From a virus (Duplodnaviria; Heunggongvirae; Uroviricota; Caudoviricetes): a stretch of 44,111 bases of DNA. Below the pieces are notes generated by a model. It saw only the letters and a list, made by a program, of their open reading frames with translations, did not search any database and was not told the DNA's origin. The position numbers and the translations under genes were made by a program. The stretch covers positions 1-44,111 of IMG/VR virus record IMGVR_UViG_2563366879_000002; one strand, 5' to 3'. Below are positions 1-10,021 of this stretch, piece after piece (the first letter of the stretch is position 1; the number at the start of each line of letters is the position of its first letter).

Positions 1-1236
1 CTACGATAACCGCACATTCAACATAGCTACCTGTTCGTCGTTCATGTCATCAATCCACATACCGTAAATTTCATACACCATCTGCGCAGTTTCATGCCCC
101 ATTTGGCTGGCTATAAATGCCGGGTTCGCTCCTGCCGTCAACAGCCAGCAGGCAAAAGTATGCCGCGTATGGTACGGATTACGGCGGCGAATACCAGCAC
201 GTTTTACTGCTGCATTCCACCTTGCCCCCAAACTGCTTACCGAGTAATAAGGTTTTTGTTTTCCGTTACACACCCTGGGCATGAAAACAAAATGCAGTTT
301 TTGCTTTTCGGTTCTGCCGTACTCCCGATGATAAAAGGTGATTTCGCTTTTGCGATGATGCCCGGTCAGTTTGTATTGCTCCTTCAGTGCTTCAAGAGCA
401 GGCTGCAGTAGTGTTACTGTCCGGATCCCGGCATTTGTTTTTGGGGGACCGAACATATCAAGTATCGTCAGGTTTCTTCTGACATTCACTATTCCCTTTT
501 CGAGATCCACATCCTCCCACGCCAGAGCTGCCAGTTCCCCGTGACGAAGTCCTGAGTAAACGGCAAATTTCCACAAGTTCTGGCTCTGTCCTTTTTCACT
601 TTCCATTAATGCATTGAATTCTGTTTTAGATAACGGATCAGGCTTTATTCTGTTTCGCTGTAATTTTTTTACTCCTTCAAATGGTTTGGTTGATATAAAT
701 CCCGACTGATACGCAAAACGTAACAGCGAACAGAGCAGGGCGATATAGTTATCAACTGTGCGTACGGTTCTTCCTTTTTTGTTGGATCTTGGATTATCCA
801 GGTAAAGCGTTTCTCCATGCAGCAGTTCATTCCGGTAATTTAAGATATCGCTATAACGAATATGTGATATCGGGGTACTTTCACAAATTATTATTCTGAG
901 TGTTTTTAATTGTGATTTCGTTTTCTTCATTGTGTTTGTTGTTAACTCTGTCTCTTTAATTTTTGTCCAGATATCACAAAGCTCCCCGAACGTTTTTATG
1001 ACTCTCGTTGTCACCATTTTTGCCCCAGTGCTGGACTGGGGAAAACGTCTTAAATACTCAAATTCACCGGAGTTTATTTCATGAACTATCAGCGCTCTTA
1101 AATTTCCGGCCTTTTTAATATTACTGTTTGTAATCTCCCAACCTTTTAATGTTTCCCGACATCGTTTTCCTCGAAACATGAACCAGATGCGAATGTATCT
1201 ACCTCTAATCTCGACACCTGTTGGTAATTTAGACAT
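1..1236 (-). CDS. intR: Phage integrase, tyrosine recombinase family (411 aa); its stop codon is the first triplet of the window
   Basis: Full-length minus-strand ORF; C-terminal catalytic region (HTRHTFACWLL...GHETAQMVYEIYG) typical of tyrosine recombinases; excisionase-like gene immediately upstream in transcription order; recalled as Rac IntR. Confidence 0.9.
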   Translation of the reverse strand: MSKLPTGVEIRGRYIRIWFMFRGKRCRETLKGWEITNSNIKKAGNLRALIVHEINSGEFEYLRRFPQSSTGAKMVTTRVIKTFGELCDIWTKIKETELTTNTMKKTKSQLKTLRIIICESTPISHIRYSDILNYRNELLHGETLYLDNPRSNKKGRTVRTVDNYIALLCSLLRFAYQSGFISTKPFEGVKKLQRNRIKPDPLSKTEFNALMESEKGQSQNLWKFAVYSGLRHGELAALAWEDVDLEKGIVNVRRNLTILDMFGPPKTNAGIRTVTLLQPALEALKEQYKLTGHHRKSEITFYHREYGRTEKQKLHFVFMPRVCNGKQKPYYSVSSLGARWNAAVKRAGIRRRNPYHTRHTFACWLLTAGANPAFIASQMGHETAQMVYEIYGMWIDDMNDEQVAMLNVRLS

Positions 1237-1237
1237 A

Positions 1238-1453
1238 TCATGATTCTTTGATAAACTGATTTATCTTTGGATAGTTGTACCAGATAATTCCTCGTTTGCT
1301 GTCTGGCTTACCTAAAGGAGATACTCGTTTGAAGTGGAAGCCCTCCACCCAACAGTTCTGGCGGTATGCTTCAATTTGTCTGGCCCCCAGACCAGTGCGA
1401 AGCATCAGGCCGTATTCAACCATCCACTCTTCATTAAAGATTACTTGTGCCAT
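1238..1453 (-). CDS. xisR: Excisionase-like small protein (Xis, YdaQ/XisR-like, about 71 aa); ORF track extends to 1477
   Basis: Small basic ORF directly upstream of int in the same orientation; internal start [10 protein letters not shown] matches the recalled Rac YdaQ N-terminus. Confidence 0.75.
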
Positions 1454-1552
1454 CGCATCACCTCTGGCAGGCGCCAATGTTAGACTGAAATTGACGCCCG
1501 ATGTTGATTATTAATAATCAGCTATGAAGTTTTAATTTGAATACAATGCAAC

Positions 1553-1813
1553 TCACGAGGACTGAAGTTTCTCGCAATTAAAATTAATCAGTTTTACTTT
1601 CTGCTCTCTGGAAACGCCTGCTTCTTTTTTACCTGAGAGCATTTTTTCGCATTCTGATTTCGTTAGTTTAGATTTTGAATATCTTGTCCAGTTAGTAGGA
1701 GTGCCACCTTCCTTTTCAATAGTGGCGGTAATTTTATACATGAACATCTCCATTATTATTTCCAGTGGTTCGTTTATTCCATCTTTCGAGTGCTTCTTTT
1801 TCACTTCCACCAT
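1553..1813 (-). CDS. Small hypothetical protein in the ydaC position of Rac; true start may be the internal Met (MEMFMYK, end about 1753)
   Basis: ORF track minus-strand ORF between xis and ralR; Lys/Glu-rich; no recognisable motif. Confidence 0.4.
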   Translation of the reverse strand: MVEVKKKHSKDGINEPLEIIMEMFMYKITATIEKEGGTPTNWTRYSKSKLTKSECEKMLSGKKEAGVSREQKVKLINFNCEKLQSS

Positions 1814-1928
1814 AACCGGTTCGGGATTCGCATCCGTTACACTTCGCTCGGTAATATCCTGAAATGGCTTTCACCGTTACTGATGGACAACCACAAAATG
1901 GACATGGTTTAACATTGTCATATCTCAT
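1734..1928 (-). CDS. ralR: Restriction alleviation protein Lar/RalR (64 aa, zinc-ribbon)
   Basis: MRYDNVKPCPFCGCPS...CNGCESRTGYGG...ALERWNKRT: CPFCG plus CxxC pair typical of Lar family; position upstream of recT as in Rac. Confidence 0.8.
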   Translation of the reverse strand: MRYDNVKPCPFCGCPSVTVKAISGYYRAKCNGCESRTGYGGSEKEALERWNKRTTGNNNGDVHV

Positions 1929-1983
1929 AACTTTTCTCATAAAAATATTTCAAGTTCGCGGTGCATTACACCGCCAGGCTGAA

Positions 1984-2793
1984 TTATTCCTCTGAATTAT
2001 CGATTACACTGTATTCCCCGGTTAATACAGAGGAATCTGCAGGATCGATTGTCAGTGGTTCCTTTTCATCCATTGATACTGCACGCTGGATCTCAATTGA
2101 TACGGGCAGATATTTGAACAGACGACGAATAGCCGTTTTCTTTGCCATTTCTTCCCAGTGAGTTACCCACGGCCCGTTATTACTAGCTTTACTCTGGCTG
2201 CGCACCAGCTCAATCTGTTTGTGCGTCATAACTTCAAACTGAGTACCTCCGTCTTTCAGTCTTGCGACAGCATAGACGTGGGTAACCGGGGCATCTTCGT
2301 TTTCTCCTGGGCGGTGTATTAACTTTTCATCAAGGCCAAATTCGAAATTAAACTCGTCACCTTCACGGACAACACGGGCTGACAGGCTGGCGATTTGACC
2401 TGAACGGCGAGCCAGATCAATCATGCCGCGATAGCCAATGATTAGCTGAACGTTTTTTTTACCGCTCTTTTCGTTTTTATTACCAAAAGGCAGTAAATAT
2501 GCATGACCGAGGGCGCTACCGGGCTCAAGTCCGAGCTGTGAACACTGTACGATTGCACTGACAAAACTCATAGTGTCACAGTTTCCTAACGCCGGAACTT
2601 TACGAATTTCTGTGGTGGCGATACGGATCATACGTTCAGCCGTCATATGGCGTGGAAGAGCTGCTGCCAGTTGCTCTTTCATTGATGGCTGGTTAATAAA
2701 ACTAATCACGTCGTTATTTTTAATTGCTGCTGGTGCACGGTTTCCCTGAGTTTTTTGCAGATCGGCTTTTGCGATTGGTGGTTGCTTAGTCAT
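1984..2793 (-). CDS. recT: RecT single-strand annealing recombinase (269 aa from internal Met [12 protein letters not shown])
   Basis: Protein matches the remembered RecT of Rac throughout; immediately downstream of recE in the same operon. Confidence 0.9.
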
Positions 2794-5437
2794 TTGCATA
2801 TTCCTTAGCCCAGCGGGGCAGTGATAACGTCTTAATAGCTGGCCATTCATCGGTATTGAGGCAGTCAGCCAGGGTTCGCAGATTGCGGTGATATTCCAGC
2901 TGACCTGCCAGTTTTGCTTCTTCGCCCATCATGAAAATTTCAACCGGATAACGTCCGCATTCAATAGTTGTGCTGGCAACCAGAAAAACGAAAGTTGGCT
3001 GCACTCCAAACTGTGCTTCATAACCGTCACTGTAGAATGCATCCTGAACGTGATAGCGGTAGTCGTAATAAGCGGTTTTGAATCGTTGAATATCCGCCGT
3101 AGTTTTCACGTCCATGATCCAGTGAAATTCAGGGATAATTTTGTCCGGACGGCACCGACACAAAATTCCTGTTTCAGGATCTTCCCAGTAAATTGATGAT
3201 TCAGCGTGTCCGGCGCTTTCAACAAGCCATTGCCCCAGCGGCAAAGCCATAACGCTTTGATACATGAGTTCAATTTTCCGGCCTTCTTCCGCAGTGATAA
3301 CCGTTTTTCCTGTGTTTGCGCATTCCATCAGAAACGCTTTCTCCTCTTCTTTTCCGGCGTTTGTACGGCGGTTAAATTCAGGTGCTACGATAAAGCGGTT
3401 ACTGAATTCTTCCGGTTCAAGTACCCGGCAGTGGAAAGCGGTTCCTAAATCGAGCGTTTTTGTCTTTGTGGTGTCCACGGGGGCATTTTTACGCCACAAA
3501 TACAGTGCCGGAGTATCAGCAATGTCATCGAGCTGAGACTTACTGACACCGGGACCCGCGTGGTAATTCTCATTCGAAATTCCGTAATAAATACCTGGCT
3601 CTATGTCTTCTACGATTACGGGATCTGCGACTTCGCCAGTTTCATCACTGCAATCGCGATGCGGATCGCTGCCAGCATTCTCATTGTGCGGATGTTCAGC
3701 GCCTTCCATTTTCTCCGGATCATTTTCCTTAGCTTCAACCTGATTCTCTTCATCGAATGTTTCCTGGTATGTTGCGTCGCCCATCACCGCACCACAGTCA
3801 GGGCAGTTATCCCCGCCAGTCTGACCGCAGGCATTGCAGGCTATTTCCGGTTCCTGTTGCACTACTGGCTCAGGTTGTTTCATATCCGGGCTGATTTTTT
3901 CCGTTTCTGGCTGGTTCTGGTACACAGAATCGCGAGTCTGGATCCCCTTAACCCATTTCGGATCGTTCGGGTCGCTAATTCCGTCAACAAATTCACCACG
4001 TGATGCAGCAAGCAATTTATCGGCATCGACAGGATTTTTTGATGGAATGTTTTTCCGGGCTTCATGGAGTTCTGCCCGCAGTTCCTGATATTTCGCATCA
4101 ACAGAATTTACCTGTGACTGAGCATCCAGTGGCTGCGTGTCCTGATGATGTTCAGTTGCGTCCGGTTCCATTGTTTCAGCCTCTCCCTGTTCATCTGCCG
4201 TTGTTCCAGATGGTTGCGGTTTTTCTTCATCATCCTGTTTTCCTTCTTCTGTTACTCGCTGCGGCATCGGGGCCGAGGAGCGACCGCAGGCAATATCCAC
4301 GATTTCCGGATCAGGGTTGGCATGATCGGTTTCAGTCAGTACTTTGTTCAGATATTCAGTGACGTGTGCGGGGATGACCTCGATCCCAATTGGTGCTTCT
4401 TTCACGGACGCAACCACGATGGCGCGGGAATAATCCAGCCCGCCAGGCATGGTGATGAATTTGTCGCGGAAAACAGAAAAGGGTGGTTTATTTTCAGCGA
4501 TAATTTCCTCAATGCGTTTAGCGTGTGCCGGATGAAGGTTATAGATGTCCACGTCCATTGAACGGGCCAGTACGCCAGTGGCTACATCGCGCGCCAGTGA
4601 CGTCAGATCGTGGACGAAACCTTCGCCGCGATCGGTGAGGTTCCCGCCGCCAGCATTAGCACCGGAAGCCGTGCGAGTGATGTGTGAAACACGATTCCCT
4701 TTTCGCCATTCTTTTGTCAGAAGACCGCGATCAATGTGTTCGGTATCCAGCCAGGCTGAAATGAAATTCTTAAATTCATAGGGCTGATGTTTTTTCGTGA
4801 TAGGGAAAACTGCCTTAATTGCATCAGTCAGGCGGAGCAGGGCGGCATTATCCAGAGTTGTCGGTTCTGCCATGCCGCGTATGGCCAACAGCAGATTCTG
4901 GACATAGCTGTTTTCCTGATCCATCTCAAGAGCAGTAATGTGTTCGCGTTGTTCACGGGTGGCATGATGCAGGTATTTCCGATCCCCGGCCGCATACGTA
5001 AAAATGTGCAGTAGACGCTGAGTGAACCGCAAAGTGGCTACAGAGACTTCACAATCCTGGCAATCCCCGTGGGCGTCTGCCTGCGCGTTTTCTTCCTGGC
5101 CTCCCGTCAGTTTTTCAGTTTCCTGAGCATTGTCCTGATAGTGAACGTCGTCTGGCGCTGCTCCCGGTTTTAGTTCCCAGGTCATGGAGTCTTTGCTGAG
5201 TTGATAGCGTTCACTCCAGGTAAAATCGATCTCACCTTCAGGGGGAAGGTCATTAACGACAGGAAAATTTGTGGCAACAGCTTTAAAATAGTTGCTCAGT
5301 TTTTTACCTGACTTAACGATCAGGTAGTCCAGAGTGACACAGGTCGATTCAAAATCGTCACTTGCCCACAGGACGACGTCAGGTTCACCGGATGATTTTT
5401 TCGCTTTTCGTAACAGGAAGAGTGGTTTTGTGCTCAT
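2786..5437 (-). CDS. recE: RecE exonuclease VIII (883 aa)
   Basis: Long minus-strand ORF; acidic Gln/Glu/Pro-rich central region and conserved C-terminal nuclease domain ([24 protein letters not shown]...) as in RecE; recE-recT arrangement. Confidence 0.9.
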
Positions 5438-5535
5438 TGTTTTTTAACCTCAACTCAGATTAAAATTACTGCGAGTGATGAATAAATGTCCCAGGTTCTT
5501 CACTCAGGCCTGCACGTCGTGCAGGCTTTCTTTTT

Positions 5536-5811
5536 TCAGATTTCACCTTTTAATTTCATTGCAATCAGAGTTGCCAGAAATCCGGCTTTTCTTTCTGCGG
5601 GCAGATTCTTTCCGATGTGAACCAGACTCACTTTTGTGACACCTTCATCAAGTGTTTTTACGTTGCCTGATGGGCCGTCAATATCAACCACAGTGAATGG
5701 GGTTTCTTTATTTTCTGTTTTAATCACGTAGCCAATACGCTTTCCTTCCAGATTAACCTCGTGAACAATGTCATCGGTAGTTACAACAGTGACTTCATAA
5801 TTGGTAATCAT
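5536..5811 (-). CDS. racC: RacC-like small protein (91 aa)
   Basis: ORF track ORF in the Rac racC position upstream of recE; sequence recalled as RacC. Confidence 0.6.
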   Translation of the reverse strand: MITNYEVTVVTTDDIVHEVNLEGKRIGYVIKTENKETPFTVVDIDGPSGNVKTLDEGVTKVSLVHIGKNLPAERKAGFLATLIAMKLKGEI

Positions 5812-5884
5812 TTTTTCTCCTTAATTAAGGTTGAGCGAATCCCTGCCATTGCTGGCATAAATTCAGTTTCGCATAGTCAGTTAA

Positions 5885-6055
5885 TTAAAGTTCGTGTGCC
5901 ATCTGGTCTTTTTCGGCACAATTTTCACTACAATATTTTTTCATTTCCGTCGTTGGGATAACTCCACGCATGAAATGAAGTGGTCTTTTAATGCTTTTGC
6001 TTTCTTCAATTCCTTTATTGCAAAGGTGGTAAGCACATTTTATTTTCTTAGTCAT
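5885..6055 (-). CDS. ydaE: Small Cys-rich protein YdaE-like (about 56 aa), not on the ORF track; coordinates approximate
   Basis: Hand translation of minus strand: [56 protein letters not shown]; start ATG overlaps the kilR stop (TGATG). Confidence 0.55.
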   Translation of the reverse strand: MTKKIKCAYHLCNKGIEESKSIKRPLHFMRGVIPTTEMKKYCSENCAEKDQMAHEL

Positions 6056-6276
6056 CACCATGACTCCGCCTTTACTGGTAAACCATCACGACCGAGGAAG
6101 ACTTTAATCATGCAGTCAGAAATGCATGTTTTTGTAGTCAGGTTACGAATATAAAGTTTTCGCTTTTTAATATTGTTTGCCGAGGCGATATATGTCCGGC
6201 CTTCATGAAGAACATAATCACCAGGAGTCACACACTGACGTGGTATTTCATCAGTTCCGAAGTGATGTGCAATCAT
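6055..6276 (-). CDS. kilR: KilR cell-division (FtsZ) inhibitor (73 aa from [10 protein letters not shown])
   Basis: Sequence matches remembered KilR; located between ydaE and sieB as in Rac. Confidence 0.8.
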
Positions 6277-6716
6277 AATTATCTCCATTTTTACAAATGA
6301 ACTTTGTTGATGCGGTGCCTGGTGCCTCCAGGTGACTGCAACCAGTTAACAATTACAGTCGGCTTTCCCACCCAAACCAATAAGGACTAACATGACTTTT
6401 AACTGTGCCGCGTGCGCTTAGCCGCATTCACCGCATCACAAAATTCACTTTAAAAAGGGCGGACATCAGTCGAACTTCAAGAAAAAACTGATGCCGCCAA
6501 GACTACACACAGCAGTGTTGTTATTTACAACCGGAGGCGCACTCCCACCATTTAAATTTAACAGACAAGACCGACTCTTTATGGATACCGGAAGTGCGCC
6601 TTCGTGTTGTGCCCGGTTTTATTTCACCACCTCCGGGCTTCGGTGGTCTCGGCTATACCCCTACAGCGAGAGCTTGTGTTAACATTTCAATACCCTTACA
6701 GTTGAGAATTATTGAT

Positions 6717-7205
6717 ATGTTGGATGTATTTACTCCATTGTTGAAACTTTTTGCTAACGAGCCACTCGAAAGACTTATGTATACGATTATCATTTTTGGT
6801 CTCACTCTCTGGCTGATACCGAAAGAGTTTACTGTCGAATTCAATGCTTATACTGAAATACCTTGGCTCTTTCAGATTATCGTTTTTGCCTTTTCTTTCG
6901 TGGTCGCCATTTCCTTCTCAAGATTGCGAGCACATATTCAAAAGCATTATTCATTACTACCAGAGCAACGAGTATTGCTTCGTTTATCTGAGAAAGAAAT
7001 CGCTGTATTTAAAGATTTCCTTAAAACAGGAAATCTTATTATCACTTCTCCTTGCCGTAACCCGGTTATGAAAAAATTAGAACGGAAGGGCATCATTCAA
7101 CATCAGAGTGATAGCGCAAACTGTTCTTATTATCTCGTCACCGAAAAATACTCCCATTTTATGAAGTTATTCTGGAACAGCAGGAGTAGACGTTTTAATC
7201 GTTAG
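6717..7205 (+). CDS. sieB: Superinfection exclusion protein SieB (162 aa from internal Met MLDVFTPLL); membrane protein
   Basis: Hydrophobic N-terminal segments (IIIFGLTLWLIP, LFQIIVFAFSFVVAISF); sequence recalled as SieB; plus-strand gene embedded in the leftward operon as in lambda and Rac. Confidence 0.85.
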   Translation: MLDVFTPLLKLFANEPLERLMYTIIIFGLTLWLIPKEFTVEFNAYTEIPWLFQIIVFAFSFVVAISFSRLRAHIQKHYSLLPEQRVLLRLSEKEIAVFKDFLKTGNLIITSPCRNPVMKKLERKGIIQHQSDSANCSYYLVTEKYSHFMKLFWNSRSRRFNR

Positions 7206-7357
7206 CTTACTGTGTGCTTCTCCAACCATCGGCGCGCACCAGTTTCGGTTTTAAATGTTTTGCTTTTGGTATACGTCATAGCAGTGAACGTTCCATCTTG
7301 GTTGGGGAACACGCCGCACACTAGGGATTCGTTATTGCCGAGGTCGATTTTTTGCAT
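7202..7357 (-). CDS. ydaF: YdaF-like small protein (51 aa), hand-translated; coordinates approximate
   Basis: MQKIDLGNNESLVCGVFPNQDGTFTAMTYTKSKTFKTETGARRWLEKHTVS; convergent with sieB with a few-nt 3-prime overlap. Confidence 0.5.
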   Translation of the reverse strand: MQKIDLGNNESLVCGVFPNQDGTFTAMTYTKSKTFKTETGARRWLEKHTVS

Positions 7358-7367
7358 TTTTCGCACC

Positions 7368-7502
7368 TCACATTTTGTTGTTGCGGATAGAGGCTTCTGC
7401 CTGCCAGAGATCCCAGTCGTTGCTGCGTAGAGCCTGTACAGCCTGGCTGTAAGTGATATCGCAACAATCCATCAAATACTGAACTACTTCGTAATGCACC
7501 AT
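7368..7502 (-). CDS. ydaG: YdaG-like small protein (44 aa), hand-translated; coordinates approximate
   Basis: MVHYEVVQYLMDCCDITYSQAVQALRSNDWDLWQAEASIRNNKM; first gene of the leftward operon downstream of the left operator. Confidence 0.5.
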   Translation of the reverse strand: MVHYEVVQYLMDCCDITYSQAVQALRSNDWDLWQAEASIRNNKM

Positions 7503-7694
7503 CTTATCTCTCCCCTTAACGCCGGGTGGCGGAACTAACTGCTGCACTGCAAAATTTGAATCCCGCCGTCATGTTCATACGCCTCGGGCTGGCTACTTAA
7601 CCCCTTACCACTGCCTGGTAACTCGAAGTATTGCCCTGCGTTCTGTGGGGCGGGGTGGGTGGTATGCTGGAACTATAGGTAATGCCTAATTGAT

Positions 7695-7716
7695 TGTCAA
7701 TAGGCTATGCCTAATG
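7695..7716. promoter_or_regulatory. Left operator element: 22-bp sequence TGTCAATAGGCTATGCCTAATG whose exact reverse complement recurs at about 8338-8359; contains the TTAGGC/GCCTAA half-site
   Basis: Direct reading of both intergenic regions flanking racR; additional half-site copies nearby (about 7679-7740). Confidence 0.5.
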
Positions 7717-7809
7717 TTTTGAGCGTAACCTAATAGGTGATGGCGACAGGAGAAAGTGATGGGGGGTTAAATAACGGAATCCAGGAGTTTTCCGTCAGAC
7801 CATATAAGT

Positions 7810-8286
7810 TTAAGTTCCAGTTTTTGTGATGTTCTGGCTTTTCCGTTCAGATTCTAGAGCTTTCAGATACTTACCCACTTTCATTTCCATCGCTGCTATG
7901 TAGGCGCGAACATCGTGGTCAACCCAATCTGGTTCTGTAGTATTTCCAGATAACAGGAAAGCTACAATCGCTCTTATTTCATCAGAGGCTGCTTGATAAA
8001 GGTTGTTTATATCTAAAAGTTCACTTTTTGTATCTGAATTGGTGGGGGTTGGTATGGGGTATTCGTTAAGCCCCCAATGCTCTGGACCAACAACATCAGA
8101 AAAGAAACGCCATAATTCTGGAAGTTTATCTTTACTTATGGAGCCTTTCTTAATCCAGTCATAAATTGATGGTGGTTGGACTTTGAAGTGGCGTGCGACC
8201 TCCGCCTTTGATTTGACGGATCCCGATGCGATTTTTTTGTTAATGGCCTGCTCTATCGCTCGGCCTAAGTCTTTACCACTAAGCAT
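7810..8286 (-). CDS. racR: Prophage repressor RacR (158 aa, HTH)
   Basis: Sequence recalled as RacR; divergent from the Cro-like ydaS; flanked by operator repeats. Confidence 0.85.
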   Translation of the reverse strand: MLSGKDLGRAIEQAINKKIASGSVKSKAEVARHFKVQPPSIYDWIKKGSISKDKLPELWRFFSDVVGPEHWGLNEYPIPTPTNSDTKSELLDINNLYQAASDEIRAIVAFLLSGNTTEPDWVDHDVRAYIAAMEMKVGKYLKALESERKSQNITKTGT

Positions 8287-8409
8287 TGCTTAATATTCTC
8301 CTATGCTCATTGCATTAGGCAATCCCTACCCTTATCGCATTAGGCATAGCCTATTGACATTTATGTTAGGCGTCGCCTAATATTTCTGTGTGTTTTTGGA
8401 GTTCATTCG
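8287..8409. promoter_or_regulatory. Divergent promoter/operator region between racR and ydaS with three ATTAGGC-based inverted repeats (including CATTAGGCATAGCCTATTGACA and palindrome TTAGGCGTCGCCTAA)
   Basis: Seen in sequence; architecture analogous to lambda OR between cI and cro. Confidence 0.55.
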
Positions 8410-8706
8410 ATGAAAAAAGAGAACTATTCATTCAAGCAAGCTTGTGCTGTTGTCGGTGGGCAATCAGCAATGGCTAGGCTTTTAGGTGTATCACCTCCAA
8501 GCGTAAATCAATGGATCAAAGGGGTACGTCAATTGCCTGCCGAGAGATGTCCAGCAATTGAACGTGCAACAAGAGGTGAGATTCTGTGCGAAGAGCTTCG
8601 TCCTGATATTGACTGGTCATATTTACGACGTTCGGCATGTTGTTCGCAGAATATGTCAGTGAAGCAACTAAATGACAGTAACAAATCCTCATTTGATCAT
8701 ACCTGA
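8410..8706 (+). CDS. ydaS: Cro-like HTH protein YdaS (98 aa)
   Basis: Sequence recalled as YdaS; first gene of the rightward operon opposite the repressor. Confidence 0.85.
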   Translation: MKKENYSFKQACAVVGGQSAMARLLGVSPPSVNQWIKGVRQLPAERCPAIERATRGEILCEELRPDIDWSYLRRSACCSQNMSVKQLNDSNKSSFDHT

Positions 8707-8728
8707 AACATCAAGAGGCAAATGATTC

Positions 8729-9151
8729 ATGAAAATCAAGCATGAGCACATCGAATCAGTGTTGTTTGCCCTGGCAGCCGAAAAAGGGCAGGCATGGGTA
8801 GCCAATGCAATTACTGAAGAATATCTGCGCCAGGGGGGCGGCGAATTGCCCCTGGTTCCAGGCAAGGACTGGAGCAATCAGCAGAATATCTATCACCGTT
8901 GGTTGAAAGGTGAAACGAAAACGCAAAGAGAAAAAATTCAGAAGCTGATCCCAGCAATTCTGGCAATCCTTCCGCGCGAGCTGCGTCACCGACTCTGCAT
9001 CTTCGATACCCTGGAACGCCGTGCATTACTGGCGGCGCAGGAAGCGTTAAGTACGGCAATTGATGCGCATGATGATGCAGTCCAAGCCGTTTACCGGAAA
9101 GCGCATTTCAGCGGCGGCGGGTCTTCCGACGATTCTGTCATTGTTCATTAA
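8729..9151 (+). CDS. ydaT: YdaT (140 aa), toxic/CII-like protein of Rac
   Basis: Sequence recalled as YdaT; immediately downstream of ydaS. Confidence 0.85.
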   Translation: MKIKHEHIESVLFALAAEKGQAWVANAITEEYLRQGGGELPLVPGKDWSNQQNIYHRWLKGETKTQREKIQKLIPAILAILPRELRHRLCIFDTLERRALLAAQEALSTAIDAHDDAVQAVYRKAHFSGGGSSDDSVIVH

Positions 9152-9163
9152 GCAAAAGTTTCC

Positions 9164-10021
9164 ATGCTGTTTGTGCTTATTCTAAGCAACCGGGCAGCAT
9201 CATACGGGGCAATTATGGCCGCATTACCATACATGCAACTGTACATAGCTGATTACCTGGCTGACACCATGCATTTGTCAGCAGAGGAGCATGGTGCGTA
9301 TTTGTTGCTGATGTTCAATTACTGGCAAACAGGAAAGCCAATACCTAAAAACAGGCTGGCAAAAATTGCCCGTCTGACTAACGAGCGATGGGCTGATGTT
9401 GAACCATCCTTGCGGGAGTTTTTTTGCGATAACGGCGAGGAATGGGTGCATCTTCGGATTGAGGAAGATCTGGCATCAGTCAGGGAAAAATTAACCAAAA
9501 AATCAGCCGCAGGAAAAGCATCGGTTCAGGCCAGAAGAAGCAGAAAGGAAGCAGATGTTCAAACAAAACAAGAGAGAAATTTAACAGGTGTTCAAACAGA
9601 TGTTGAAGTGGTGTTTGAACATGATGTCAACACAAAGGCAACTAATAAAGATACAGATAAAGATCTAAAAACAGATCCCCCCCTAAATCCCCCCCGGGGG
9701 AATCGAGGTGGCAAAAAGTTTGACCCTCTGGATATTGCTTTGCCGAACTGGATTTCTGTCTCGCTTTGGCGTGAGTGGGTTGAATTTCGCCAGGCATTGC
9801 GTAAACCGATTCGAACGGAGCAGGGCGCTAACGGGGCGATACGGGAGCTGGAAAAATTCCGCCAGCAGGGTTTTTCACCTGAGCAGGTGATTCGACACAG
9901 CATCGCCAATGAATACCAGGGCTTGTTCGCGCCAAAAGGTGTTCGACCTGAGACGTTACTCCGACAGGTTAACACCGTCTCGTTACCGGATAGTGCGATC
10001 CCGCCAGGCTTCAGGGGGTAA
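9164..10021 (+). CDS. ydaU: YdaU, replication-initiation-associated protein (285 aa)
   Basis: Position upstream of the DnaC-like gene, as for lambda O/P; recalled as YdaU. Confidence 0.75.
   Translation: MLFVLILSNRAASYGAIMAALPYMQLYIADYLADTMHLSAEEHGAYLLLMFNYWQTGKPIPKNRLAKIARLTNERWADVEPSLREFFCDNGEEWVHLRIEEDLASVREKLTKKSAAGKASVQARRSRKEADVQTKQERNLTGVQTDVEVVFEHDVNTKATNKDTDKDLKTDPPLNPPRGNRGGKKFDPLDIALPNWISVSLWREWVEFRQALRKPIRTEQGANGAIRELEKFRQQGFSPEQVIRHSIANEYQGLFAPKGVRPETLLRQVNTVSLPDSAIPPGFRG

Follow-up and report, generated by a model that had tools for sequence, protein, structure and literature searches.

In phage lambda, the repressor gene lies between two clusters of operators that overlap outward early promoters, with three 17-bp sites in the left cluster (OL) and three in the right cluster (OR), and OL and OR are about 2.3 kb apart. 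Here we compare with this plan the immunity region of Rac, an Escherichia coli prophage that is integrated beside ttcA and was analyzed in a window of 44,111 nucleotides (the whole stretch, positions 1 to 44,111 of IMG/VR virus record IMGVR_UViG_2563366879_000002). As in lambda, Rac has tandem palindromic sites about 2.4 helical turns (25-26 bp) apart, a divergent cro-like gene on the right and a long early-left operon with xis-int at its end; the mRNA of the repressor, RacR, is leaderless and the protein forms an octamer (PMC9638921, PMC11014345). Unlike in lambda, the operators of Rac are 15 bp long (6-N3-6), with two clear left and four right sites, OL and OR are separated by only ~0.65 kb, the C-terminal domain of RacR is unrelated to the S24 domain of CI, and YdaS reportedly does not repress racR (PMC9638921).

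The Rac module is closest to the CP-933P and Qin switches, with which it has a backbone in common. In the PaaR2/YdaS/YdaT switch of CP-933P (Jurenas et al. 2021, PMC8630535), this Rac-like backbone carries ydaS-ydaT to the right, operators are found on both sides, the −35 and −10 of the left promoter (PL) are identical to those of the right promoter (PR), and the repressor is octameric; the differences are that the repressor is PaaR2, with an operator motif of the GTTTAGTAA type, and that a toxin-antitoxin pair is co-transcribed with it. PL933P and OL1-3 of CP-933P were tested with reporters (PMC8630535), whereas the left cassette of Rac described below is a predicted one. The DicA/DicC switch of Qin (Bejar 1988; Ragunathan and Vanderpool 2023, PMC10448788) resembles Rac in that its repressor is short and of the non-SOS kind and has operators both between dicA and dicC and at dicBp, which lies downstream of dicA and is the counterpart of PL, but the repressor family and the operator sequence are different.

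To the right of racR, four operators (OR1-OR4) surround the ydaS promoter, PydaS, and all of them have been published: the previously described RacR operators, O1-O3 or four inverted repeats in the respective papers, are the sites at 8279-8380, with the same WTAGGC-n3-GCCTAW sequence (PMC5700373, PMC9638921, PMC11014345). Krishnamurthi (2017) reported three variants of a GCCTAA/TTAGGC repeat within the 123 bp between racR and ydaS, three RacR-DNA complexes in electrophoretic mobility shift assays (EMSA), enrichment in chromatin immunoprecipitation followed by quantitative PCR (ChIP-qPCR) and repression of a ydaS reporter (PMC5700373). Wisniewska (2022) obtained a DNase I footprint of RacR on a 271-bp fragment, named the operators O1-O3, derived the monomer motif ATTAGGC and the operator WTAGGC-n3-GCCTAW, mapped PydaS by primer extension and −10 mutagenesis along with three racR promoters, and found the PydaS/OR1 region to be protected first, at the lowest RacR concentration (PMC9638921). 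OR2 lies within the footprinted region, and OR4 is also an off-target site of C.Csp231I (PMC9638921). In another study, four inverted repeats were counted, RacR was found to be an octamer by gel filtration/size-exclusion chromatography, and the octamer was interpreted as four dimers on the four adjacent right-hand repeats (PMC11014345). A first-pass annotation of the window, made without database searches, had treated the operators as not mapped before; for the right-hand ones, this has to be corrected, given the publications of 2017 (repeats, EMSA, ChIP) and 2022 (footprints, start sites).

The two flanks of racR are connected by an exact inverted repeat of 22 nt: the reverse complement of TGTCAATAGGCTATGCCTAATG (7695-7716) is present at 8338-8359 (CATTAGGCATAGCCTATTGACA), and the repeat lengthens to 33 nt at 85% identity. 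In 300 first-order Markov resamples of 7000-9200, in which the longest non-overlapping exact inverted repeat was scored, the longest one was 15 nt (mean 10.5), compared to 22 observed, and apart from the 22-mer pair, the window contains no exact inverted 16-mers 5 kb or less apart. Palindromes built on TTAGGC/GCCTAA are present in the racR-ydaS region at 8312-8321 (CATTAGGCAA) and 8366-8380 (TTAGGCGTCGCCTAA, a perfect palindrome). The repeat and the palindromes are far above chance, and the first-pass annotation had located both correctly, the repeat to the base. The motif TTAGGC-N3-GCCTAA, taken from the perfect palindrome, was then scanned across the window by mismatch count. With at most 2 mismatches, five matches were found (7675, 7700, 8315, 8340 and 8366), all within two patches, with 1.28 expected; 3 of 100 shuffles reached five. 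At 3 mismatches, there was no overall enrichment in the window (16 observed vs. 15.85 expected), so that the weak sites at 7719, 8254 and 8279 are not callable from the window alone.

The 22-mer is not as a whole an operator: it is composed of a single 15-bp operator, TTAGGC-N3-GCCTAT, the five bases that complete a TTGACA −35 hexamer, and two bases of flanking sequence. Its exactness is incidental and holds in this strain only: in K-12, the right-hand spacer is ACA instead of ATA (21/22), and the copies in O157-class prophages vary at other, non-half-site positions. On the minus strand, the left patch reads OL2 (7714-7700), TTGACA sharing its last T, five bases, OL1 (7689-7675) and an overlapping −10; the one mismatch of OL2 is the T shared with the −35. 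A promoter scan of this strand returned TTGACA-17-TATAGT at 7700-7672 (11/12), aimed leftward at ydaG, with a predicted transcript start near 7665; we denote this promoter PL-Rac. The plus strand of the right patch reads OR2, TTGACA sharing the last T of OR2, six bases and then OR1, the last three bases of which are the start of the −10 TAATAT. Thus, clusters of the same motif flank the repressor gene (7675-7714 and 8315-8380) and each overlaps an outward sigma-70 early promoter, predicted on the left and mapped experimentally on the right (PMC9638921). The centre-to-centre spacing is 25 bp for OL1-OL2, 26 bp for OR1-OR2 and 25 bp for OR2-OR3 (24-26 bp in relatives), which, judging from spacing alone, is appropriate for pairwise cooperative binding (~2.2-2.5 turns).

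We consider it highly probable (about 85%) that, in a lambdoid OL/OR arrangement, one patch is the left and the other the right operator-promoter region of the Rac immunity module. The OL/OR-type RacR operator set proposed in the first-pass annotation is borne out on the right, where binding is published and PydaS is mapped; on the left, it is deduced from the sequence. RacR dimers would recognize 15-bp sites, TTAGGC-N3-GCCTAA, and each outward early promoter would be built on one cassette, O2 - TTGACA - 5 or 6 bases - O1 - −10, such that O2 ends in the first T of the −35 and the last three bases of O1 begin the −10. Because the operators overlap the −35 and the −10, bound RacR would occlude both hexamers. 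At the right-hand sites (OR1-OR4, 8279-8380), bound RacR represses PydaS and with it ydaS-ydaT, and autoregulates racR, as shown experimentally (PMC5700373, PMC9638921). At the left-hand sites (OL1 and OL2, 7675-7714), a near-consensus promoter would fire leftward into ydaG-ydaF and on toward kilR, recET, xis and int, and we infer with high confidence that RacR dimers on OL2 and OL1 occlude this strong promoter at the head of the early-left operon. The 22-nt identity would then reflect the presence of O2, the −35 and two flanking bases in both cassettes. Four lines of evidence support the left PL/OL, namely constancy of the half-sites and the −35, occurrence of the cassette across the family, positional homology and published derepression of the leftward genes. 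The left pair (7675-7714) seems to be new in the searchable literature, with an older description possible, given that the 1996 Rac kil paper was outside the material read. The left operator strings were found in no searchable paper; a ydaG promoter, a site downstream of racR or looping is described neither in the papers on the RacR operators nor in Jobling's letter, the YdaT paper or the 2026 CRISPRi preprint, and the literature on sbcA/recE promoter control and on genome-wide RacR binding contained nothing on the left sites.

Prophages of the O157:H7 type and related ones have a region ~87% identical, and a RacR 91% identical, to those in the window. Within this class, hardly any change is seen in the half-sites and the two TTGACA hexamers of the left and right patches; the OL1 half-sites are kept save for one T to A change at a spacer-adjacent position, and the TTGACA of PL-Rac is unchanged in K-12 as well as in the O157 class. 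The operator spacers vary (OR1, GTC to TAA; OL2, TAT to TAC; OR2, ATA to ACA, in K-12), and so do the inter-operator and flanking bases in the 87% class. This pattern is indicative of selection for the half-sites and hexamers and not for the repeat itself.

Homologues with 42-64% overall identity show strong conservation of the N-terminal domain of RacR (helix-turn-helix; residues 1-75). When one genome per species was scanned for this domain, 29 loci were obtained. At 13 non-Rac loci (Mixta, Morganella, Proteus, Erwinia, Achromobacter (two), Burkholderia, Sphaerotilus, Comamonas, Rhodoferax, Herbaspirillum and two metagenome-assembled genomes (MAGs)), two sites separated by 24-26 bp are located 61-2458 bp beyond the repressor stop codon. 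In Klebsiella phage KpF5, the cassette is 1396 bp downstream of the repressor gene, and in a Nitrosomonas MAG, it is present at 3 mismatches. Altogether, the O2/−35/O1/−10 cassette is found downstream of the repressor in 15 non-Rac relatives, reaching Betaproteobacteria, and in these 15 the layout is likewise two-sided, with sites on both sides of the repressor gene. The arrangement is always ...GCCTAT-TGACA-5/6 nt-TTAGGC-N3-GCCTAA-TAT, firing away from the repressor, and isolated background sites in the relatives are few (~6 in 175 kb). The left cassette is also carried by a functional phage, vB_EcoS-683R6, which is 98% identical.

At loci where the pair lies far from the repressor (0.7-2.5 kb), the gap is occupied by genes of the same sense, which are candidates for accessory or defence functions expressed in the lysogen: in Burkholderia, an ankyrin-repeat protein (L023:3490-5281), an LprI-domain protein and a 360-aa unknown in Herbaspirillum (L036:1974-3932) and a DUF450 protein in phage KpF5 (L007). 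In lambda, rexAB occupies the gap between the repressor gene and OL in the same manner. The RacR N-terminal domain (70-82% identity) also occurs fused to a C-terminal Peptidase_S24 domain, mostly in Betaproteobacteria and Pectobacterium (P0103, P0105, P0114, P0118; L018:3001-4098, L036:1268-1951), and the same TTAGGC-N3-GCCTAA operators flank the genes of these fused relatives on both sides. RacR itself has no Pfam match to Peptidase_S24, unlike autocleavable repressors of the LexA/CI S24 type. These observations show domain swapping between SOS-cleavable and non-cleavable repressor scaffolds. One locus (L010), on a 5.2-kb contig labelled as a Candidatus Nanosynbacter MAG (JARKOR010000130.1), is a 99%-identical E. 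coli racR locus and is almost certainly a binning contaminant.

Positional homology comes from the predicted leader of the PL transcript, which is common to lambdoid prophages of other immunity types. Among 5426 complete E. coli genomes, the segment 7550-7666 is present in 3457 and the racR part in only 1086; ~11 phages of Escherichia also have the leader segment, which is unannotated, as does an Actinobacillus phage (82% identity). In the other immunity types, the leader has the first leftward gene on one side and the 3′ end of another kind of repressor gene on the other, and directly to its right is the repeat motif of the respective immunity type, which recurs in the repressor-cro intergenic region. 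Thus, PL933P lies directly upstream of the same leader in CP-933P-type prophages (phage Evi locus), and Qin-like loci with other repressors have this leader after the position equivalent to dicBp. Homology of Rac to the other-immunity prophages stops at 7662-7669, beside the −10 of PL, at the predicted start site. This break is the left edge of the exchangeable immunity module, and the left pair of Rac is therefore inside it: operators travel with the repressor as one exchangeable unit.

Expression data come from published RNA-seq and quantitative reverse-transcription PCR. When RacR is lowered, ydaG, ydaF, kilR, ydaE, racC and ydaC increase 40- to 70-fold, and xisR and intR ~100-fold (PMC6765115, PMC11014345, bioRxiv 10.64898/2026.09.06.749655, a 2026 preprint). 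The leftward genes also rise with a Cascade roadblock at +3 or +58 of racR and, because the block stops read-through from the racR promoters, the induced transcripts must start downstream of it. Thus, as far as the literature goes, repressor loss derepresses both leftward and rightward early genes. It is plausible that the distal genes kilR, recET and int run from the left site as one operon; sieB is opposed inside the block.

Several observations weigh against this interpretation of the left patch. The published EMSA, footprint and ChIP-qPCR probes cover the racR-ydaS region only, on 123-271-bp fragments (PMC5700373, PMC9638921). The left half of OL1 is ATAGGT (ATAGGA in the O157 class), with 2 mismatches in the site. 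Among the 29 loci, 11 have no downstream pair even at 3 mismatches within 2.3-3 kb downstream, and 3 of these 11 also have no upstream motif. Furthermore, racR deletion is viable in a ydaST-deleted background (PMC5700373), and derepression of the left operon, including kilR, is therefore not lethal; this is compatible with Rho-dependent or other attenuation and leaves the strength of PL-Rac undecided. Finally, the leftward induction could be partly secondary to YdaS/YdaT action or to prophage excision.

Among the alternatives, the one that deserves most weight, although we regard it as unlikely to describe the principal role of the left sites, is that they are bound by RacR but serve mainly as auxiliary anchors of an OL-OR loop that tightens PydaS repression and tunes racR autoregulation. 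This possibility is compatible with the OL/OR arrangement and is suggested by the elution of RacR as an octamer (PMC11014345), an oligomer that bridges OL and OR in lambda, and by the presence of exactly two good left sites with a spacing like that of OR1-OR2. An anchor, however, would not need the near-consensus outward promoter that always accompanies the left sites, in the same register, across 15 distant loci, nor would the leftward genes be expected to be derepressed on RacR loss. Far less probable is that the right-hand control region was duplicated and that its left copy, now without function, is decaying in a cryptic prophage. Rac is indeed defective, and a 25-bp unit directly repeated in tandem between racR and ydaS (8300-8324 and 8325-8349, 72% identity) shows that duplication happens here, but the half-sites and the −35 are kept in the 87% class although neighbouring bases vary, and the same cassette is found in functional phages (vB_EcoS-683R6 and KpF5) and in distant genera.

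That the palindromes serve as intrinsic terminators, of sieB for instance or against read-through into racR, we find hardly credible. A terminator scan does flag 7701-7713 and 8363-8383 on the plus strand; both matches, however, are operator palindromes with 5- or 9-bp stems and only 3 G-C pairs, the number found (2) is close to that expected from shuffles (1.5), and the hairpin at 8363 lies inside the mapped PydaS promoter. Least probable of all, in our assessment, is that racR forms a mobile cassette, with the 22-nt arms as its terminal inverted repeats or recombination sites. Perfect inverted repeats flanking a single gene at ~620 bp would fit such an element, lambdoid phages are known to exchange immunity modules, and a homology breakpoint adjoins the left arm. 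Nevertheless, racR is the sole gene between the arms, with no transposase or recombinase there, and the flanks of the arms, TAATTGAT and TTTATGTT, form no direct repeat, so that the transposase and/or target-site duplication characteristic of the terminal inverted repeats of insertion sequences and miniature inverted-repeat transposable elements are lacking. In the relatives, arm and gene are anywhere between 61 and 2458 bp apart and have other genes between them, and the arms are fully accounted for by operator plus −35, their identity being inexact in K-12. The locus, then, is an ordinary lambdoid OL/OR arrangement, the right half of which was already known and the left half of which phage biologists would expect.

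The OL/OR reading also bears on the RacR octamer. The centres of OL and OR are 640-691 bp apart, a geometry that allows a loop; two dimers on OL1-OL2 and two on OR1-OR2 could, speculatively, bridge the regions as in lambda. Given that a second, two-site cluster exists, this lambda-type alternative for the octamer is worth testing. We tentatively put forward, with somewhat less than even confidence, that the octamer is an OL1-OL2/OR1-OR2 bridge closing a ~0.65-kb loop around racR, as opposed to four dimers on the right-hand repeats, and that the cassette is an ancient portable unit that repressors of Enterobacterales through Burkholderiales have in common although their C-terminal domains are unrelated. 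If so, the loop would couple silencing of kilR-recET-xis-int to that of ydaST, and OR3/OR4 would come under loop-dependent autoregulation.

The origin of the 22-nt identity was addressed by visual sequence comparison. The right-hand sites of Rac are at −87, −61, −36 and 0 from the repressor start, and those of the relatives at about −60, −35 and 0, that is, Rac has one 25-26-bp operator unit more on this side. OR2 of Rac together with the −35 has the sequence that the relatives show at OL2 (TTAGGCATAGCCTATTGAC), and OR3 (TTAGGCAATCCCTAC) resembles the −35-proximal right operator of the relatives (TTAGGCAATTCCTAT), with the −35 lost; at the position of OR4, the relatives carry a stronger site. 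The match of 22 bases, beyond the constrained 17, would be explained if a duplication or conversion had placed a unit of the OL2 type on the right.

A third left operator at 7719..7733 is uncertain, its 19-bp spacing being odd. The copy of this candidate in E. ruysiae has 2 mismatches; a third left site of this type was not seen in the non-Rac relatives. The candidate overlaps an invariant palindrome, ACCTAATAGGT, at 7729-7739. The block 7729-7744 (ACCTAATAGGTGATGG) is identical in four sequences (Rac and O157-class) although its surroundings vary, and contains two RacR-like half-sites facing outward (CCTAAT/ATAGGT); it might be a RacR monomer half-site, a site for another protein (YdaS?) or a chance occurrence. 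The published YdaT box (PMC11879457) is unchanged in this strain at 8722-8739 (ATGATTCATGAAAATCAA), across the ydaT start codon; in the left region, only a lone, non-conserved AATCAA half-site was found, in the PL spacer. Long-range complementarity between 7594-7612 and 7755-7773 is absent from the O157 class and was treated as chance.

Table 1 Coordinates of operators, promoters, genes and other features of the Rac immunity region and leftward block; left-hand operators and promoter elements are predictions.
Feature	Position	Strand	Remarks
Left arm, exact 22-nt inverted repeat	7695..7716	.	OL2, rest of −35 and 2 nt
Right arm, exact 22-nt inverted repeat	8338..8359	.	Direct sequence match
OL1, putative RacR site	7675..7689	.	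ATAGGTAATGCCTAA on +, TTAGGCATTACCTAT on -; 2 mismatches to TTAGGC-N3-GCCTAA
OL2, putative RacR site	7700..7714	.	ATAGGCTATGCCTAA on +, TTAGGCATAGCCTAT on -; 1 mismatch
Predicted PL-Rac −35 TTGACA	7695..7700	-	First T is last base of OL2
Predicted PL-Rac −10 TATAGT	7672..7677	-	Overlaps outer 3 nt of OL1
Weak candidate third left site	7719..7733	.	TTGAGCGTAACCTAA; 3 mismatches; 19 bp centre-to-centre from OL2
OR1 (O1 of PMC9638921)	8366..8380	.	Perfect palindrome TTAGGCGTCGCCTAA; overlaps PydaS −10
OR2	8340..8354	.	TTAGGCATAGCCTAT; 1 mismatch; last T is first base of PydaS −35
OR3	8315..8329	.	TTAGGCAATCCCTAC; 2 mismatches; matches −35-proximal operator of relatives, now without −35
OR4 (O3 in PMC9638921)	8279..8293	.	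CTAAGCATTGCTTAA; 3 mismatches; racR start codon in spacer
PydaS (PR analogue)	8354..8383	+	−35 TTGACA 8354-8359, 18-nt spacer, −10 TAATAT 8378-8383
racR, repressor, 158 aa	7810..8286	-	Protein identity 99% to K-12 RacR, 91% to O157-class
ydaS, Cro-like	8410-8706	+	Pfam YdaS_toxin/P22_Cro
ydaT, CII-like	8729-9151	+	Pfam YdaT_toxin
ydaS and ydaT, rightward operon, OR-repressed	8410..9151	+	PMC5700373, PMC9638921; ydaU onward lies to the right
Leftward early block, presumably served by PL-Rac	7..7547	-	RefSeq annotation of near-identical genome
ydaG	7368-7547	-	Leftward block
ydaF	7202-7366	-	Leftward block
kilR	6063-6284	-	Leftward block
ydaE, racC		-	Leftward block; between kilR and recE in leftward gene order
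recE	2793-5444	-	Leftward block
recT	1991-2800	-	Leftward block
ralR, ydaC-like		-	Leftward block; between recT and xisR in leftward gene order
xisR	1244-1459	-	Leftward block
intR	7-1242	-	Leftward block
sieB	6715-7203	+	Opposite orientation, inside leftward block
Hairpin directly after racR stop	7772..7797	-	8-bp stem; candidate racR terminator
Predicted 5′ leader of PL transcript	7548..7665	-	~115 nt; common to lambdoid prophages of other immunity types

The region 7550-8450 matches one E. coli chromosome at 99.9% identity and K-12, which has these genes annotated as racR and ydaS, at 98.3%; the local gene map was taken from the RefSeq annotation of the 99.9%-identical genome (its locus coordinate equals window + 51) and Pfam. 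The start codons of the first PL genes are uncertain: ydaG is readable from GTG at 7547 (59 aa), with RefSeq having only a 44-aa form from ATG at 7502, and ydaF, here a 54-aa open reading frame (ORF) at 7202-7366, is annotated as 40 aa in the near-identical genome. The hairpin that follows racR is a tentative terminator that would insulate PL from racR read-through. Its stem survives a two-sided change in the O157 class; the z values are only −1.2 and −0.8, the U-tract is poor, and the hairpin is absent in Mixta and Morganella.

Within the leader, the 5′ end is very C-rich and G-poor (ACCACCCACCCCGCCCCACA), with a rut-like look, and the core is nearly invariant. Rfam returned nothing relevant on 7200-9200. 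A structured nut/put-like RNA was rejected for lack of conserved-structure support, the fold z being −0.47; in an alignment of 9 leader copies, including that of the Actinobacillus phage, the covariation term was +0.31, with only 2 single-sequence compensatory events. At ~7569-7590 on the minus strand, GAGG is followed after 8-9 nt by ATG(AAC)ATGACGGC, the start of a ~20-codon ORF that ends before ydaG. The annotation of phage Tritos has a 78-aa protein beginning at this ATG, apparently DUF1391/YdfA in a longer form. The leader ORF could encode a leader peptide or an unannotated N-terminal extension.

These findings leave the general picture of lambdoid regulation unchanged; their significance is for Rac, which is carried in part by most E. 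coli strains and in which racR-ydaST is being actively studied, both because it is a lethal "toxin-repressor" switch and because cross-talk from restriction-modification regulators reaches it. The predicted left operator-promoter would provide a direct mechanism by which loss of RacR induces kilR, recET, ralR, xisR and intR, with filamentation, recombination and excision as downstream consequences, and the left cluster offers an alternative reading of the RacR octamer. For the family as a whole, the O2/−35/O1/−10 cassette may serve as a simple rule to locate PL and PR in prophages that encode a RacR-type DNA-binding domain.

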